Assembly: GCA_018238545.1 (NCBI GenBank)
Contig: JABCTC010000005.1
Span: 1-64,000, forward strand
DNA length: 64,000 nt
Origin: Candidatus Heimdallarchaeota archaeon
GTDB lineage: Archaea > Asgardarchaeota > Heimdallarchaeia > Heimdallarchaeales > Heimdallarchaeaceae
Reading direction: 5' to 3'
The notes beneath the pieces are model-generated. The model was not told the origin of the DNA and ran no database searches. It worked only from the letters and a program-made list of their open reading frames with translations. The stretch's first letter is position 1, and every line of letters starts with the position of its first letter. A program made the translations under genes and the position numbers. Shown here in pieces: positions 40,717-45,744 of the stretch.

Positions 40717-41148
40717 CTAATCGTCTTCGAGAACAGTGGGTTCAAGTGGGTAAGATTCTTTTGTTGGAGATGGTTGACCAGACTGATGAGCAGAAATATC
40801 GCTTTCTACCTCGTTTAGTTCTTGCTCTAGTTTATCTATTTCTCCTTCAACCTTTTTGATTCTTCTCTCAAACTCTCGTATTTTATATTCTTTTTCAGCG
40901 ATGTGCGCTTCTTTCTTCTTTGTTGCAACCTCACTTTTGAAAGCTTTATCTATCAACCCTTGTTGTTCAAAATCAATTTTCTTTAACAATTGTTCCTCTC
41001 GTTCTCTATTATCTCGAGCTTTCTTCTTCATTTGCTCAGCAATTTTTTTCTTCAAATCTTGCAAATCGCCTAGTTTTTTGAAAATGTCTTCTTCTACGTC
41101 GTGTTTTTTCTCTAGAAGTTTAAAATAATGAACATTCGATTCACTCAT
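40717..41148 (-). CDS. Hypothetical coiled-coil protein
   Basis: E/K-rich heptad pattern throughout. Confidence 0.7.
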   Translation of the reverse strand: MSESNVHYFKLLEKKHDVEEDIFKKLGDLQDLKKKIAEQMKKKARDNREREEQLLKKIDFEQQGLIDKAFKSEVATKKKEAHIAEKEYKIREFERRIKKVEGEIDKLEQELNEVESDISAHQSGQPSPTKESYPLEPTVLEDD

Positions 41149-41335
41149 ATTAATCCAAATTATTAGGGGAGATGATTGTTTTTAAATTTATAGAAATAAG
41201 GGAGATTAGAAAGTTCCGTTAAATTTTCTTAAGAAAAAATGGTAGAAATAAATGAAGATAGAAAAGAAAAATTTAAGAAGAAAAGCAATTGAAAGAGATT
41301 AGGTGTAAGAGTAAATACACATACACAAAAAAAAT

Positions 41336-41459
41336 CGGACCTTAGCTCAGTGGCTTAGAGCTCTCGGCTGTAGTCAGGAGACACCCTTGTGAACAATGAT
41401 CAAGGCGTCAGTCGGTAGTAACCGAGCGGTCCCGTGTTCAAATCACGGAGGTCCGACCA
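41336..41459 (+). tRNA. tRNA-Tyr(GTA) with 47-nt canonical intron (41374-41420) and encoded CCA
   Basis: Acceptor cggacct/aggtccg (C1:G72), anticodon stem ctcgg/ccgag, GTA at 41370-41372, T-arm ccgtg-ttcaaat-cacgg, BHB helix CUGU/GUAG. Confidence 0.95.
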
Positions 41460-41468
41460 CTTTATTTT

Positions 41469-42227
41469 TTATTTTGTTTTCTTACCTATTGCTGTAAATA
41501 CGGGTATAAAGATCATCCTTCTATTCTGCTTAATCAGCTGTTGCTCTTTTTCCATAATTTGTTTAAACTCTGTTTCTGTAATCAGATTCGCCTCTAACAC
41601 TCTTTTCCATTCTTCCTCTATGTTATTAATTAAAGATTCTTTGTTCCAGGTTTGAGCTATAACAGAGATCTCAGTTTCTAGCCCTGCGGATTCAAAATAG
41701 GAGAGTAATTTTCTTCCAGCTAAAGGATCAGCACCTTCGTCTCTTAGATATTCAGTATGTTTTTTACCAAGGTTCATTTCAGGATATTCAACCCACCCTC
41801 CATAATCAGGTTCAGCTAAAGCTGCAACATATCCTTGTTTTTTACATACTCTGTAAATTTCATTCATTGCTTTAGTCGGATTCTTTAACCACAATAAGAG
41901 ATATTGAAAAAGCACAATATCGAATTTATTATCTTTCAAAGGAAGGTTTTCAACAGCCTCCACAAGAAATTCTACGTCTTCAACTCTCTGCTTCGCTACT
42001 TCAATCATTTTTTCATCTATATCGATAGCTGTTATCTTAGCAGATGTTCGAGATCTTAGTTCTCTAGTTATTGTTCCCATGCCACAACCAATTTCTAAGA
42101 TGTTTTTTGCTTTGGTTAAATCTATCTTTCTGTAGATTTGGTTGCGAAAAAAAAGGGTCCAAGAAGCTTGACGTTCAAACTGTTCTACTATTTCTGGACC
42201 CCAATTAACTCTCGGTTTTTCATTCAT
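41469..42227 (-). CDS. Class I SAM-dependent methyltransferase (third gene of the rSAM operon)
   Basis: ILEIGCGMG, IDID, LPLKDNKFDIV, LAEPDYGG; ATG 42227 lies 22 bp after the rSAM stop. Confidence 0.9.
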   Translation of the reverse strand: MNEKPRVNWGPEIVEQFERQASWTLFFRNQIYRKIDLTKAKNILEIGCGMGTITRELRSRTSAKITAIDIDEKMIEVAKQRVEDVEFLVEAVENLPLKDNKFDIVLFQYLLLWLKNPTKAMNEIYRVCKKQGYVAALAEPDYGGWVEYPEMNLGKKHTEYLRDEGADPLAGRKLLSYFESAGLETEISVIAQTWNKESLINNIEEEWKRVLEANLITETEFKQIMEKEQQLIKQNRRMIFIPVFTAIGKKTK

Positions 42228-42249: not shown

Positions 42250-43557
42250 TTATGAGAAGGATTCTCTACAAACAGTAGTTGGAGCACTATAATTAAGAGG
42301 ACATCCTCCTCCACAGATTTCCACTTCAGGACAATCAGTGCACTCATCAGGTAGATATTTCATTTTCCTTAAACTCTTAGCAAGCTTGTGGTTCCATATT
42401 TTCTTCCATTTTGTGTTCAAGATATGGCCTAGTGGTTCAAAATAACTTTGACATGGAAGAACCATACCATCAGGTTCTATTGCCATGGCAATATGAGCTG
42501 CTGTGCATTGCTTTAATCCTAACCCTTTTTCAATTGGATTAAAATCGCAGTATCTTGTAGGACTGTACCAGAGGAAACCCATGTCTTTTTCTTCTGCTTT
42601 GTTCATTATCCGACTAATAACATCATCCAATGCTTCGACAGAGAGAGTGAAAGCTTCATCTTTTCCGCCTCCTGATTTGATGATACCATTTGCAGCAAAA
42701 TGGTCTATACCTAGAGAATCGAGGAAATCTATTGTTTTCTCAATATCTTTTATATTGTAAGGAGTTAAGGTTGTATTTGTTAAGATGTACACTGGAGTAG
42801 GAACGATGTTTTTTATTCCTTGAACAGTTTCTTTCCAAGCTCCTTTGAAACCGCAAAGTTCATCATGAAGCTTCTCATCGTGACTCTCGATTGTGATTTG
42901 GAAATGATCTATTCCAGCAGTAACTAGTTTGTCTACAAATTTCTTATCCTTAAACATCCTACCATTCGAGATTATACCAGTAATAATTCCCAAATCTTCA
43001 GCATAAGCTACTAACTCTGGTAAATCCTTTCTTAATGTAGGTTCCCCACCAGTAAAAGTTACATGAGGAATACCAATTTCCCACAGATTGTCTAGTACTT
43101 GTTTCCATTCGTCTGTAGTCAATTCAATGATTTCTCTCTTATGTTCGACATAACATTTAGTGCATTTATTATTGCATCTGTAGGTTAAGGCTAAATCCAT
43201 ACGTAAAGGAGCAGAGAAAGGAGTTTCTAGTAAAGAACTGATGTCTTGAGATAAGTGTTGCACAGGATCGATATCGGGTTTTGTTAAGAGATCCATTATT
43301 GATGTCTTGAAATCTACTAAGTCGTTCATCAGTTGAATCTCATCTACACGATATTTTCTTTTAACTTCGGATACAATTTCCTCATTGGTTTTCCCTTCAA
43401 TTATTCGAGAAGCAAAATCTGTTGCAGTTCTGTTTAAATGAAAAATTCTTGTAGCATTTACCAAGAGTAAACTATTACCCTTTTTCTCTTTCCTTAAATG
43501 CATTCTTGCAAAAGTATCTAAATTCCTTATATGGGACATTTTCTTTTCTCGCATCAT
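42250..43557 (-). CDS. PqqD/RRE-radical SAM-SPASM peptide/protein maturase
   Basis: N-terminal HLNRTA..F...I.....EEIV......Y.V......D...F (PqqD/RRE-like), CNNKCTKC, FTGGEP, SPASM C-x17-C and CTDC.....CGGGC; ATG overlaps the upstream stop (ATGA). Confidence 0.92.
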   Translation of the reverse strand: MMREKKMSHIRNLDTFARMHLRKEKKGNSLLLVNATRIFHLNRTATDFASRIIEGKTNEEIVSEVKRKYRVDEIQLMNDLVDFKTSIMDLLTKPDIDPVQHLSQDISSLLETPFSAPLRMDLALTYRCNNKCTKCYVEHKREIIELTTDEWKQVLDNLWEIGIPHVTFTGGEPTLRKDLPELVAYAEDLGIITGIISNGRMFKDKKFVDKLVTAGIDHFQITIESHDEKLHDELCGFKGAWKETVQGIKNIVPTPVYILTNTTLTPYNIKDIEKTIDFLDSLGIDHFAANGIIKSGGGKDEAFTLSVEALDDVISRIMNKAEEKDMGFLWYSPTRYCDFNPIEKGLGLKQCTAAHIAMAIEPDGMVLPCQSYFEPLGHILNTKWKKIWNHKLAKSLRKMKYLPDECTDCPEVEICGGGCPLNYSAPTTVCRESFS

Positions 43558-45233
43558 CTTCCACCTCCGGCACAGGCACAGGCACAAGCACAGGCACAAG
43601 CACATCCTCCGCCACCACCACCACTTCGACCACTGCTTCTGGAAACAGGGGGACGAGTAGCTTTTTGTAAAGATTTTGTGAAGGTTTGTGGTTTTGCTAT
43701 GACTCCTGATTGGAGACTGCTAATTGGACCAACATGAGTTGATCCACTGTGGTGTTGAATCCTGAAGAATGATCTAGAAGCAGACCGTGTATATGAACGT
43801 CCTGTATAGAAATAGTAATTTCGGACATACCAATGTGGATAGTAGTAACCATCTCCTCGTCTTTCAAGACGTTCTTCATATCCTTCATCAACCATAATCC
43901 AAAGAAATGCATCTTTGAGTTCAGGAGTAGTTTTCTTCATCTCCTCCCATGATTTATCGATAATTTCCTCATAATGCTTCTTTGTTCTTCTAACGGAGTA
44001 ACCTTTCATCTTTTTCGAAACACCTTTAATACGTATTATGAGAGCTTTTTTCAATTCAGTTTGGTGAACTGGTTCTCGAGGGATAGCACCAGAACTAGCA
44101 CCTTTTTTCCATTTTATATCTTCCTTATTTCTTCGTCTAATACCCGCTATAATGCTTTGTTGATATTTAGGAAGCTGAGTAATTACTTGAGAACTAGCAA
44201 CCACTTGAAACCTTAAAACGGGTTTTGTGGTCTCAATCTCCAAATAACCTAATTTCATCATTTCAAATAATATCAACGTTGCAACTTGAGCTAATGGTCT
44301 TTGTAATAGTATTGCAACTTGTGAGGGAGTTAAATCCTTCTTCACACCCCCACCTAGAGTTGTTACTATTGGTGGAAGGTATTCCTTGCTCTTTCTTCTT
44401 TTCCTCAATAAGTAAAATATTACAATCACGGCCACTATAGCAAAGAAAATAATTATGTCTCTGTTGTTATATAGGGTTAAACTCCAGAAAACACTATGTA
44501 CTTTCACATATTCCTCCGGAAGACCAACAGCTGACATGTATCCTTGGGAAGGAGAGCCAATTTTATTAAATTCAATATAAGGTCCATCTGAAGATGAAGC
44601 TACAGATGTTGCATCACTAGGTTCAGCATGTAAAACATTCCAATCTGAAGAAGTTTGTCTTACTTTTGTTTCATCAATGTCAGTCAAAATTTCTGGAAAA
44701 TAATATCTTACTCTTCTTTCAGTTGTGCCACTTGCAAAAGAACCATCATACCAAGTTTGGAGAAAAACTACGGATGCAAAACCCTCTACACTGTCAGGAT
44801 ATACCATTGCAGGATTGTGACAAAAGACTTCTAAAACACCAAATTCTCCAGGATCAATTTGACTAGCACCAAGCCAAATTTCAACACCGATTTCTATATA
44901 CTCGCTTTTTTTGATTTTTGAACTAGCTATCTCTAAACCGTTCAATTTCGCGGTAACAGAGGATAACTCATAGTGATCATTTGGAAACCCAACATCAATT
45001 ACATCTATTGAACTATAACCAGGAATACAATAGAATTCCATCTCATAATATATATCAATTGAACCATCTTCTAAAATGTGAATATCTGTATACATATAAG
45101 GAATTTCAAAACCATAAACAGCATCTAATGTTGTTAATCCGTCATCGAAATCACTCGCTAAACTAGCACCAGAAACGATAAAAATCGATATGAACAAAGA
45201 ACAACTCACAAATAATAATAACCTTGATCTCAA
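43554..45233 (-). CDS. Single-pass membrane protein (DUF2207-like architecture) with C-terminal Gly-rich (Cys-Ala)6 tail
   Basis: Signal peptide, DIHILEDGSIDI.Y ectodomain, TM followed by RKRRK, LTPSQVAILL, ends SGGGGGCACACACACACAGGGR. Confidence 0.88.
   Translation of the reverse strand: MRSRLLLFVSCSLFISIFIVSGASLASDFDDGLTTLDAVYGFEIPYMYTDIHILEDGSIDIYYEMEFYCIPGYSSIDVIDVGFPNDHYELSSVTAKLNGLEIASSKIKKSEYIEIGVEIWLGASQIDPGEFGVLEVFCHNPAMVYPDSVEGFASVVFLQTWYDGSFASGTTERRVRYYFPEILTDIDETKVRQTSSDWNVLHAEPSDATSVASSSDGPYIEFNKIGSPSQGYMSAVGLPEEYVKVHSVFWSLTLYNNRDIIIFFAIVAVIVIFYLLRKRRKSKEYLPPIVTTLGGGVKKDLTPSQVAILLQRPLAQVATLILFEMMKLGYLEIETTKPVLRFQVVASSQVITQLPKYQQSIIAGIRRRNKEDIKWKKGASSGAIPREPVHQTELKKALIIRIKGVSKKMKGYSVRRTKKHYEEIIDKSWEEMKKTTPELKDAFLWIMVDEGYEERLERRGDGYYYPHWYVRNYYFYTGRSYTRSASRSFFRIQHHSGSTHVGPISSLQSGVIAKPQTFTKSLQKATRPPVSRSSGRSGGGGGGCACACACACACAGGGR
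43569..43604 (-). repeat. Hexanucleotide repeat TGTGC(T/C) x6 encoding (Cys-Ala)6
   Basis: tgt gct tgt gcc tgt gct tgt gcc tgt gcc tgt gcc; variation only at Ala third positions. Confidence 0.95.
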
Positions 45234-45390
45234 ATTTTTTGCTCCCCAATTATTCTGTTAAAGTATATCTTTAATATGTCAAATCATTGAATAAACTAAT
45301 AATTAAAGTTATTGTATTAAATTTTCCAAGCTAAAATTCTATCACTAGTTGGCAAGATTTATTACAAGGATTACTTTCTGTTCCAATAGC

Positions 45391-45744
45391 ATGACCTCTG
45401 AAGGATTCCAAAAGATAATGCGAGTTATTTGGGAACAAACAAAGCCCTTACTGAGATTTTTACTAACAGTGACAGTCATAATGTCAATAGCAATTATAAT
45501 TATGCTATTTGTTTGGGGTTTTGATTTTCAAGATGATGCATTTCTCGTACTAGTTATAGCTGATATCTCTATTCTCATAATTTTTGTTGTTGGATTAATC
45601 ATTGTTGGAGTTAGACACGTGTTTACTGATTTAACAAAGGGTGATGAAGTTCCATGTAGGTTCTGCGGAGAGGATATAACAGGTGGGAGTAACATTTGCA
45701 CAAACTGTGGCAAGGACAATAGAAAGTTCACAGATTCAACATAA
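45391..45744 (+). CDS. Two-TM membrane protein with C-terminal zinc ribbon
   Basis: Two hydrophobic helices; CRFCG...CTNCG; ATG 45391 preferred. Confidence 0.75.
   Translation: MTSEGFQKIMRVIWEQTKPLLRFLLTVTVIMSIAIIIMLFVWGFDFQDDAFLVLVIADISILIIFVVGLIIVGVRHVFTDLTKGDEVPCRFCGEDITGGSNICTNCGKDNRKFTDST

Follow-up and report, generated by a model that had tools for sequence, protein, structure and literature searches.

A conserved Cys-Ala tail on an archaeal membrane protein as the probable substrate of an adjacent radical SAM enzyme

Background

To our knowledge, nearly all of the radical S-adenosylmethionine (SAM) enzymes known to carry both an RRE and a SPASM domain make small secreted peptides. 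The gene pair described here joins such an enzyme (gene B) to a large membrane protein (gene A) that ends in a repeat of cysteine and alanine. It was found in 64,000 nucleotides (nt) of a Candidatus Heimdallarchaeota archaeon (assembly GCA_018238545.1, contig JABCTC010000005.1, positions 1 to 64,000), a stretch that is called the window throughout, and in which an initial annotation had drawn attention to the Cys-Ala repeat, the tail.

Several described systems invite comparison with this pair. In the peptide StsA of Streptomyces sparsogenes, Cys2, Cys4 and Cys6 (a CxCxC arrangement) are joined to Gly alpha-carbons by the enzyme StsB, in a hairpin (PMC10288494). In Methanococcus voltae, a whole protein, CrpA, is given thioether (ranthionine) bridges by CrpC (PMC13692751), and QhpD forms three intra-peptidyl crosslinks in QhpC, part of quinohemoprotein amine dehydrogenase (PMC7876137). 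In the HXS system, the His-Xaa-Ser repeats of HxsA are reportedly matured by the radical SAM enzymes HxsB and HxsC (PMC13128918).

Results and discussion

The Cys-Ala tail

The C-terminus of the 559-residue gene A protein is encoded on the minus strand at 43554–43625, where 24 codons (72 nt) read S-G6-(CA)6-GGGR-stop (Table 1); the protein ends ...SGRS-GGGGGG-CACACACACACA-GGGR. Every Cys codon in the repeat is TGT, and the Ala codons are, in order, GCT, GCC, GCT, GCC, GCC and GCC. Tandem Repeats Finder (TRF) describes 43569–43604 as an array with a period of 6, 6.0 copies and 90% matches. The GC content of the 72 nt is 0.61, against 0.345 in the window and 0.34 in the genome, and the repeat is the sole run of three or more TGYGCN units in the 3.6-Mb assembly. 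At its end, the sequence GGAGGTGGAAGATGATG holds two in-frame ATG codons for gene B, one at 43557–43555 (an ATGA overlap) and one at 43554–43552 (TGATG, a one-base overlap).

A codon-by-codon reading bore out most of what the initial annotation had said of these letters. The tail, with its (CA)6 repeat and GGAGGTGGAAGATGATG, is present as described and is GC-rich in an AT-rich genome, its location needing only the correction that it lies on the minus strand. The repeat copies do differ only at the third positions of Ala codons; the strict alternation of GCT and GCC that had also been claimed is absent. The tail is a real feature and far from chance.

Table 1. Features of the gene A–B–C locus in the window
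Feature	Position	Strand	Evidence
Gene A, 559-aa single-pass membrane protein	43554..45233	minus	ORF/translation, AF2, orthologs
Leader-like segment of gene A, ca. residues 505–529, two short helices ending T-x-P	43647..43721	minus	alignment and AF2
Ser + Gly6 linker preceding the repeat	43605..43625	minus	variable length, 3–7 Gly among congeners
Ser codon AGT	43625-43623	minus	codon reading
Six-codon Gly run GGT GGT GGT GGC GGA GGA	43622-43605	minus	codon reading
(TGT GCY)x6 = (Cys-Ala)6, conserved tail core	43569..43604	minus	codon reading and TRF
GGA GGT GGA AGA = invariant C-terminal GGGR	43557..43568	minus	codon reading, congener comparison
GGAGGTG, putative Shine-Dalgarno site for gene B within the GGGR codons	43568-43562	minus	16S pairing, congeners
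Gene A stop TGA	43556-43554	minus	codon reading
TGATG, gene A stop and gene B ATG (43554-43552) sharing one base	43552..43556	minus	congeners
Gene B, 434-aa RRE/radical SAM/SPASM enzyme	42250..43554	minus	Pfam, structure matches
Gene C, 252-aa class I SAM-dependent methyltransferase, 22 nt after gene B	41469..42227	minus	Methyltransf_11 1.6e-25

Selection on the tail peptide

Orthologs of gene A are present in 21 of 23 congeneric genomes. Read from the DNA, 20 of the 21 tails have the form G3-7-(CA)6-GGGR and one has (CA)5, with GGGR in all of them. Within the 20 six-unit tails, all 12 repeat codons encode Cys or Ala without a single amino-acid change, while 11 of the 12 positions vary synonymously (TGT/TGC; GCT/GCA/GCC/GCG). 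The gene A proteins as a whole are only ca. 50% identical among the congeners. Further away, the tail peptide is retained in relatives with 24–36% overall identity across bacterial and archaeal phyla, and tails from distant phyla with GC-rich genomes use very different codons for the same peptide. The lack of amino-acid changes combined with synonymous codon turnover in the congeners indicates that the tail is almost certainly held by purifying selection on the protein rather than by the mechanics of the repeat.

Tail forms across the family

The 72-nt stretch encodes a C-terminal signature shared by many single-pass membrane proteins, which form a large family without a name. A profile built from 12 sequences and searched against 1.84 billion representatives matched 913 clusters at E ≤1e-3 and 252 at ≤1e-30. 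Among the best 151 representatives of the 913 clusters, 139 have the tail; the other 12 all stop short of the tail region, and at least two of these (P0008, P0010) are labelled as partial at the source. The main tail forms among the best representatives are (CA)4G(CA)3-GGGR (49) and (CA)3G(CA)4-GGGR (21), followed by (CA)5-GGGR and (CA)2G(CA)4-GGGR (10 each). Three-block tails also occur, such as CVCACVS-CACVCACVS-CACACA-SGGAG. The number of Cys residues in the tail ranges from 2 to 10, with a mode of 7.

In most members of the family, a hinge splits the repeat, either a single G or S or the pair VS. The initial annotation had proposed that the alternating Cys residues would all face one side of an extended strand. 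This does not apply to the family as a whole – a hinge of this kind, as in (CA)4-G-(CA)3, would flip the register, and this speaks against conservation of an array with all Cys on one face. The sequences suggest a set of hinged CxCxC blocks in place of a single unbroken strand.

A scan of one genome per GTDB species for the pattern CACACA[GS]GG found at least 369 confirmed relatives. The 80 loci listed are mostly from Chloroflexota/Anaerolineae, including the cultured Bellilinea caldifistulae and metagenome-assembled genomes (MAGs) labelled Anaerolinea thermophila and Herpetosiphon sp. Also among these 80 are MAGs labelled 'delta proteobacterium' and members of Cloacimonadota, Edwardsbacteria, Zixibacteria and Acidobacteriota. 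Among the Asgard archaea, 87 of 250 evenly sampled genomes have a match, with a distribution that is patchy by family. Across hundreds of species in distant bacterial and archaeal phyla, the tail barely changes.

In one Asgard family (f10), 40 of 59 genomes have ORFs of 720–750 amino acids whose match to the profile (E 1e-20 to 1e-40) is limited to its cytoplasmic half. Neither a Cys-Ala tail nor an adjacent radical SAM gene was seen in the two such loci fetched (L115, L116), and these ORFs may represent a tail-less paralogous family.

The radical SAM enzyme and the methyltransferase

Gene B has the domain order RRE, radical SAM, SPASM. With residues counted from the ATG at 43557 (P0002 numbering), the RRE is matched by PF05402 (PqqD-like) at residues 33–83 with 28.3 bits against a cut-off of 23.4, the radical SAM core by PF04055 with 98 bits, above the gathering score, and the SPASM domain by PF13186 with 40.2 bits against 21.5. 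The three Cys of the CxxxCxxC motif (C128/C132/C135) are invariant in all of 80 gene B orthologs, as are the SPASM Cys at 337, 351, 369, 406, 409 and 415; C419 is present in 79 of the 80 and an eighth SPASM Cys in 27. An attempt to read the type of reaction from the number of SPASM Cys was abandoned, as seven conserved residues with an eighth in 27 of 80 orthologs fit several chemistries.

The solved structures closest to gene B are SkfB (1e-27), PqqE (2e-20) and SuiB (3e-15), the SuiB alignment running the full length of the enzyme with the RRE included (residues 8–423). By its domains and these matches, gene B belongs with the peptide-crosslinking RRE/SPASM enzymes (the SkfB, AlbA, CteB, SuiB, PqqE group). 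It reaches the cut-off of no curated NCBIfam equivalog: the scores and cut-offs are 139/381 for PqqE, 136/500 for NirJ2, 115/300 for SkfB, 85/625 for StsB, 82/268 for HxsC and 66/400 for the ACGX radical SAM enzyme. A bacterial ortholog of gene B is likewise below every NCBIfam cut-off.

Gene C is claimed by no NCBIfam model at its cut-off. Its weak matches in the PDB include the C-terminal carboxyl methyltransferase LahSB (3e-12, over the Rossmann core only), which methylates peptide C-terminal carboxylates (PMC11285071). By analogy, a methyl ester on the invariant terminal Arg of the tail would be a testable idea, no more. ARAGORN found no tRNA at 41000–42000 of the window.

Linkage of the tail gene and the enzyme

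Gene A co-occurs with the radical SAM gene, usually as its immediate neighbour, and often with a class I methyltransferase. Among the congeners, the order A-B is found in all 19 loci in which gene B is visible, and A-B-C in all seven with enough downstream sequence. Hidden Markov models built from the Heimdallarchaeota radical SAM enzyme and methyltransferase were run on the 80 bacterial loci. A gene of the radical SAM family lies downstream in 62 of the 68 that have at least 1.5 kb of downstream sequence, and the catalytic ortholog, RS1 (400–535 bits), comes first in 58 bacterial loci. The 56 loci with at least 4 kb downstream include the orders RS1–psRS–MT (21 loci), RS1–psRS (14), RS1 (9) and RS1–MT (5), where MT is the methyltransferase and psRS a paralog that keeps the RRE and barrel (GGEPTLR) and has lost the cluster Cys – 49 of 52 have no CxxxCxxC. 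A methyltransferase after the radical SAM gene is also found in other Asgard families and in many of the bacterial cassettes.

The paralog psRS (L023–L102, e.g. L055:8002-9267) is present in most Chloroflexota cassettes, and the SPASM Cys are also missing in 49 of the 52. The Asgard cassettes examined (families f1, f5, f13) have the order A-RS1-MT without psRS, whether or not the tail is hinged. A connection between the uninterrupted repeat and the loss of psRS was considered and ruled out: Asgard cassettes with the hinged tail (CA)4G(CA)3 also have no psRS.

There are exceptions to the adjacency. In one Asgard family (f16; L114, L119–L122), the tail gene stands alone, and an RS1 of 47–48% identity is encoded elsewhere in four of four genomes. 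In the two loci examined (L119, L122), the methyltransferase adjoins this RS1, the pair being on another contig. One congener (G009, ca. 90% complete) has neither the tail gene nor RS1.

The overlap of the gene A stop with the gene B start and the gap of only 22 nt after gene B leave no space for an additional small precursor gene, and no such ORF was found in the window cassette.

Divergent from gene A, the window has an ORF at 45349–45744 on the plus strand encoding two transmembrane (TM) helices and a C-terminal zinc ribbon. In 73 of the 80 bacterial loci, a co-directional upstream gene also encodes two TM helices and a zinc ribbon, ending in EEPKW. The window ORF has no sequence similarity to this EEPKW gene and is retained only in the closest congeners.

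The membrane protein

No Pfam or NCBIfam family covers gene A, and none covers its bacterial relatives. The AF2 model (pLDDT 73 overall) gives a signal peptide or N-terminal helix, a beta-sandwich ectodomain (ca. residues 40–240), a TM helix (ca. 258–282), a helical, winged-helix-like cytoplasmic domain and the tail. The sequence RKRRKSK directly follows the TM helix, so the C-terminal half should be cytoplasmic. The start codon is apparently a TTG at 45233 (45231–45247, minus strand) with GGGGAG 8 nt upstream, and a TTG start is common to the congeners.

Matches to known folds are leads rather than assignments. The ectodomain weakly resembles ribophorin I and M1-aminopeptidase N-domains in Foldseek (E ca. 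1e-8, TM-score ca. 0.25). The cytoplasmic domain (residues 285–527, window 43653–44381, minus strand), folded alone, was predicted with a pLDDT of 79 and a pTM of 0.78. Foldseek found no match to it at E ≤0.001; VIA-align found GOLPH3 (3kn1; Z 6.1 over 167 residues) and yeast Vps74 (Z 4.9), middling matches, with the next unrelated one at Z 3.1. DUF2207 (PF09972/PF20990) was rejected as a family for gene A, with no match at gathering score in gene A or 10 relatives; the DUF2207 Pfam models reached two of 30 family members at E 0.16. DUF2207-bearing clusters lie nearby in the protein Atlas, which is a lead only, and the DUF2207 papers found in the literature are unrelated to the cassette.

Ahead of the tail, the leader-like segment ends in a T-x-P motif (TRPP in gene A, TNPxP in bacteria) that lies 17–25 residues before the first Cys. 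In an alignment of 20 cytoplasmic domains from archaea and bacteria, T242 is nearly invariant and P244 invariant. This segment is a plausible candidate for the site at which the RRE docks.

A Shine-Dalgarno site within the tail codons

The last codons of the tail appear to have a second role, as the initial annotation had suggested when it read them as the ribosome-binding site of gene B. The 16S rRNA of this genome ends ...GGATCACCTCCT, its 3' end containing CCUCCU, and the mRNA sequence GGAGGTG pairs with it over 7 nt. Across the genome, Shine-Dalgarno (SD)-like 5-mers peak at -14 to -10 before starts and are rare elsewhere, as judged from crude ORF starts; GGAGG begins at -14 from the ATG at 43554. 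GGAGG is invariant in all 21 congeners. The first Gly codon of GGGR is GGA in 21 of 21, against 35% GGA among the Gly codons before the repeat; the two Gly codons after it vary in their last base (T/C, and A/T/C).

The same comparison separates three possible starts of gene B, at 43557, 43554 and 43539. A TGATG or TAATG stop-start overlap is present in 21 of 21 congeners; an ATG equivalent to 43557 is present in eight (12 have ATA there and one GTG), and a Met equivalent to 43539 in 11. The conserved start is thus 43554. The ATGA overlap noted earlier, at 43557, exists in the letters and is confined to those eight congeners. A start at 43554 fixes the start codon of gene B for expression work.

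The arrangement GGA GGT GGT CGT TAA TG in another Asgard family (L103) is the same. In Asgard loci with a spacer between the genes, the first Gly codon is free (GGC, GGG, GGG, GGA), and GGGR itself persists in bacteria and archaea in which the radical SAM gene begins tens of bases further downstream and has an SD sequence of its own in the spacer. As spaced gene pairs thus conserve GGGR too, the peptide would come first and the SD role second: the tail peptide appears to be ancient, with one synonymous position fixed as part of an SD sequence where the genes came to abut. Judged by these comparisons, the SD site and the translational coupling are likely to be functional. The codons would then be a small, clean case in which a single synonymous base adds a second code, an SD sequence, to an invariant peptide.

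The 3' end of the 16S rRNA (G000 contig C86, minus strand, outside the window) has ca. 30 nt extra in the helix-45 region relative to the usual ...GGTAnCCGTAGGGGAACCTGCGG.... The extra stretch holds a perfect 9-bp hairpin, AAATTTAGA-TGAG-TCTAAATTT, and could be a small rRNA insertion or mini-intron.

Proposed function

The best-supported account of this locus is that it is probably a maturation system in which an RRE–radical SAM–SPASM enzyme acts on a membrane protein's own tail. The tail is probably the substrate of the adjacent enzyme, presented in cis: a flexible Ser/Gly linker, the Cys-Ala repeat and the GGGR end, all on the cytoplasmic side, would act as a 'core peptide' borne by the whole protein. 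In this Heimdallarchaeal genus, where the two genes abut, ribosomes finishing gene A would pass directly to gene B by way of GGAGGTG and TGATG. The RRE of the enzyme would dock on the helical T-x-P segment ca. 20 residues upstream of the Cys, and the radical SAM domain would modify the cysteines. The membership of gene B in the crosslinking RRE/SPASM group and the precedents of StsA, CrpA and QhpC favour serial thioether bridges from Cys sulfur to Ala or Gly carbons, such as SkfB, StsB and CteB make, followed by methylation, in which gene C may add a methyl group to a thiol or to the terminal carboxylate. Taken on its own, the assignment of the product as a thioether is by analogy and tentative, and it is as yet doubtful.

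Beyond this, the chances are about even that the cassette modifies a full-size membrane protein covalently, on its cytoplasmic tail, in a way not described so far; one form would be a ladder of Cys-Ala/Gly thioethers with a methyl cap. The modified tail, and not a released peptide, would be the end product, perhaps as a rigid module binding a metal or a partner, and the system would constitute a new class of radical SAM protein maturation common to archaea, both Asgard and others, and to Chloroflexota and several further bacterial phyla. Should the tail indeed be modified, the protein modification would be new, widespread and open to testing in cultured carriers (Bellilinea caldifistulae, Anaerolinea thermophila).

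Alternative explanations

Several points weigh against a tail modified by its neighbour. Approximately six of 68 bacterial loci and one Asgard family have no adjacent enzyme, the RRE score is modest (28 bits), and with gene B below the curated family cut-offs the reaction type cannot be read from homology. The case for the tail as the substrate is drawn from genomic linkage and co-occurrence. Residues 528–559 of gene A are disordered in the AF2 model (pLDDT ca. 30), which lends no structural support for or against any geometry. Cys-X-Cys arrays are, moreover, classic ligands of metals and Fe-S clusters, and the tail could act without any covalent change. The main rival is built on this last point – an unmodified Cys-Ala tail as a metal or Fe-S module, similar to a metallothionein or a Cu/Zn thiolate site, with the radical SAM enzyme acting elsewhere or using the tail for docking or cluster delivery. 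The CxCxC arrays, with 5–10 Cys and a mode of seven, do resemble thiolate-cluster ligands, no modification of the tail is known, and the separation of tail gene and enzyme in one Asgard family and a few bacterial loci is compatible with it. Yet the enzyme has a peptide-recognition RRE and sits in the peptide-crosslinking SPASM group, the tail and enzyme genes are jointly present or jointly absent in the genomes tested, and the cassette has no space for another small substrate gene. The invariant GGGR end and the T-x-P segment would also be left unexplained by a pure metal site. A metal module is therefore unlikely, and modification of the tail in cis is the preferred reading. It is extremely improbable, in turn, that the repeat is a hexanucleotide microsatellite produced by replication slippage, with no selected function and possibly serving as a phase-variation switch. 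The period-6 array of six copies with 90% matches, and relatives that differ by a single unit, (CA)5 against (CA)6, are what slippage would give. Among the 21 congeners, however, no frame-shifted tail lengths were seen, the comparison of repeat number and codon usage finding the tail kept and its length changing only by whole 6-nt units; the tail shows many synonymous changes and no amino-acid changes; and the same peptide recurs at 24–36% identity in distant phyla, in very different codons where the genomes are GC-rich. The view of the initial annotation that this was not simple slippage agrees with all of these results. A phase-variable contingency repeat was considered separately and is effectively refuted, the only changes being of ±6 nt with none nonsynonymous.

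The SD site has a rival of its own, in which GGAGG is a by-product of three Gly codons and codon bias, with gene B translated by termination-reinitiation at TGATG or through some other signal. Any GGN GGN pair needs only one A to give GGAGG, GGA makes up 35% of the nearby Gly codons, and SD-like 5-mers are found upstream of a minority of genes, ca. 3–7% per motif by crude ORF starts. The case for the site is in itself comparative, and some of its parts count for less than they seem to: the congeners are close kin, so the figure of 21 of 21 overstates their independence, and GGA is a common Gly codon in an AT-rich genome. In bacteria, GGAGG is found in the last 18 nt in 17 of 27 abutting and 14 of 38 spaced gene pairs (Fisher p = 0.047), an enrichment in favour of the site that is a weak contrast given non-independent loci and crude start calls. 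Against the by-product, the free base is A in 21 of 21 congeners while the two Gly codons that follow have changed their last base repeatedly, the motif falls exactly within the SD window of the genome, and the spaced Asgard loci do not keep GGA. It is somewhat unlikely, on balance, that GGAGG is a by-product, and a functional SD site within the tail codons is preferred.

Comparison with known systems

None of the papers searched describes the tail motif: a full-text search for it gave nothing but unrelated DNA strings, and a topic search only analogs. The nearest precedent for the motif is StsA. The StsA/StsB/StsC and BlaA/BlaB systems (PMC10288494) and SkfA/SkfB are similar in combining a radical SAM enzyme that depends on an RRE, and has a SPASM or twitch domain, with a substrate whose Cys stand at every second residue; the CxCxC blocks of the present tail are flanked by Gly runs. 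The candidate substrate differs, being the C-terminal tail of a 559-residue membrane protein where those systems have a small leader-core peptide. A GxGxG acceptor block is absent, the Cys number 5–10, and gene B scores 85 bits against the StsB cut-off of 625. Classification as a sactipeptide or ranthipeptide precursor was rejected, as these are short, typically <100 amino acids, and the candidate here has 559, with no small ORF since the genes overlap.

The HXS system is alike in that a conserved cassette joins a substrate bearing a short repeat, of two to four residues, to radical SAM/SPASM enzymes dedicated to it, and unlike in both the repeat and the enzyme (82 bits against the HxsC cut-off of 268). 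Haft's ACGX-repeat peptide system (TIGR04340), compared by model name, reportedly also pairs a short repeat with a dedicated radical SAM/SPASM enzyme; again the repeat and the enzyme differ (66 bits against the ACGX radical SAM cut-off of 400). In its translation, the locus resembles ordinary coupling by an SD sequence inside the 3' end of the upstream gene with a stop/start overlap (TGATG or ATGA), and is nothing unusual in kind. What differs is that the SD sequence is built from codons of an invariant peptide, one synonymous base carrying the signal.

The whole-protein systems are precedents for a substrate of this size. CrpA/CrpC has the RRE, radical SAM, SPASM order of gene B and an adjacent Cys-rich whole-protein substrate, and in QhpC/QhpD a radical SAM enzyme likewise crosslinks a whole Cys-rich protein encoded alongside it. 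They are likened to the present system by type, not by homology: CrpA and QhpC are soluble and have other repeats (C-X-X-Q/D in CrpA), whereas the gene A protein is anchored in the membrane and has Cys only in its last 16–25 residues.

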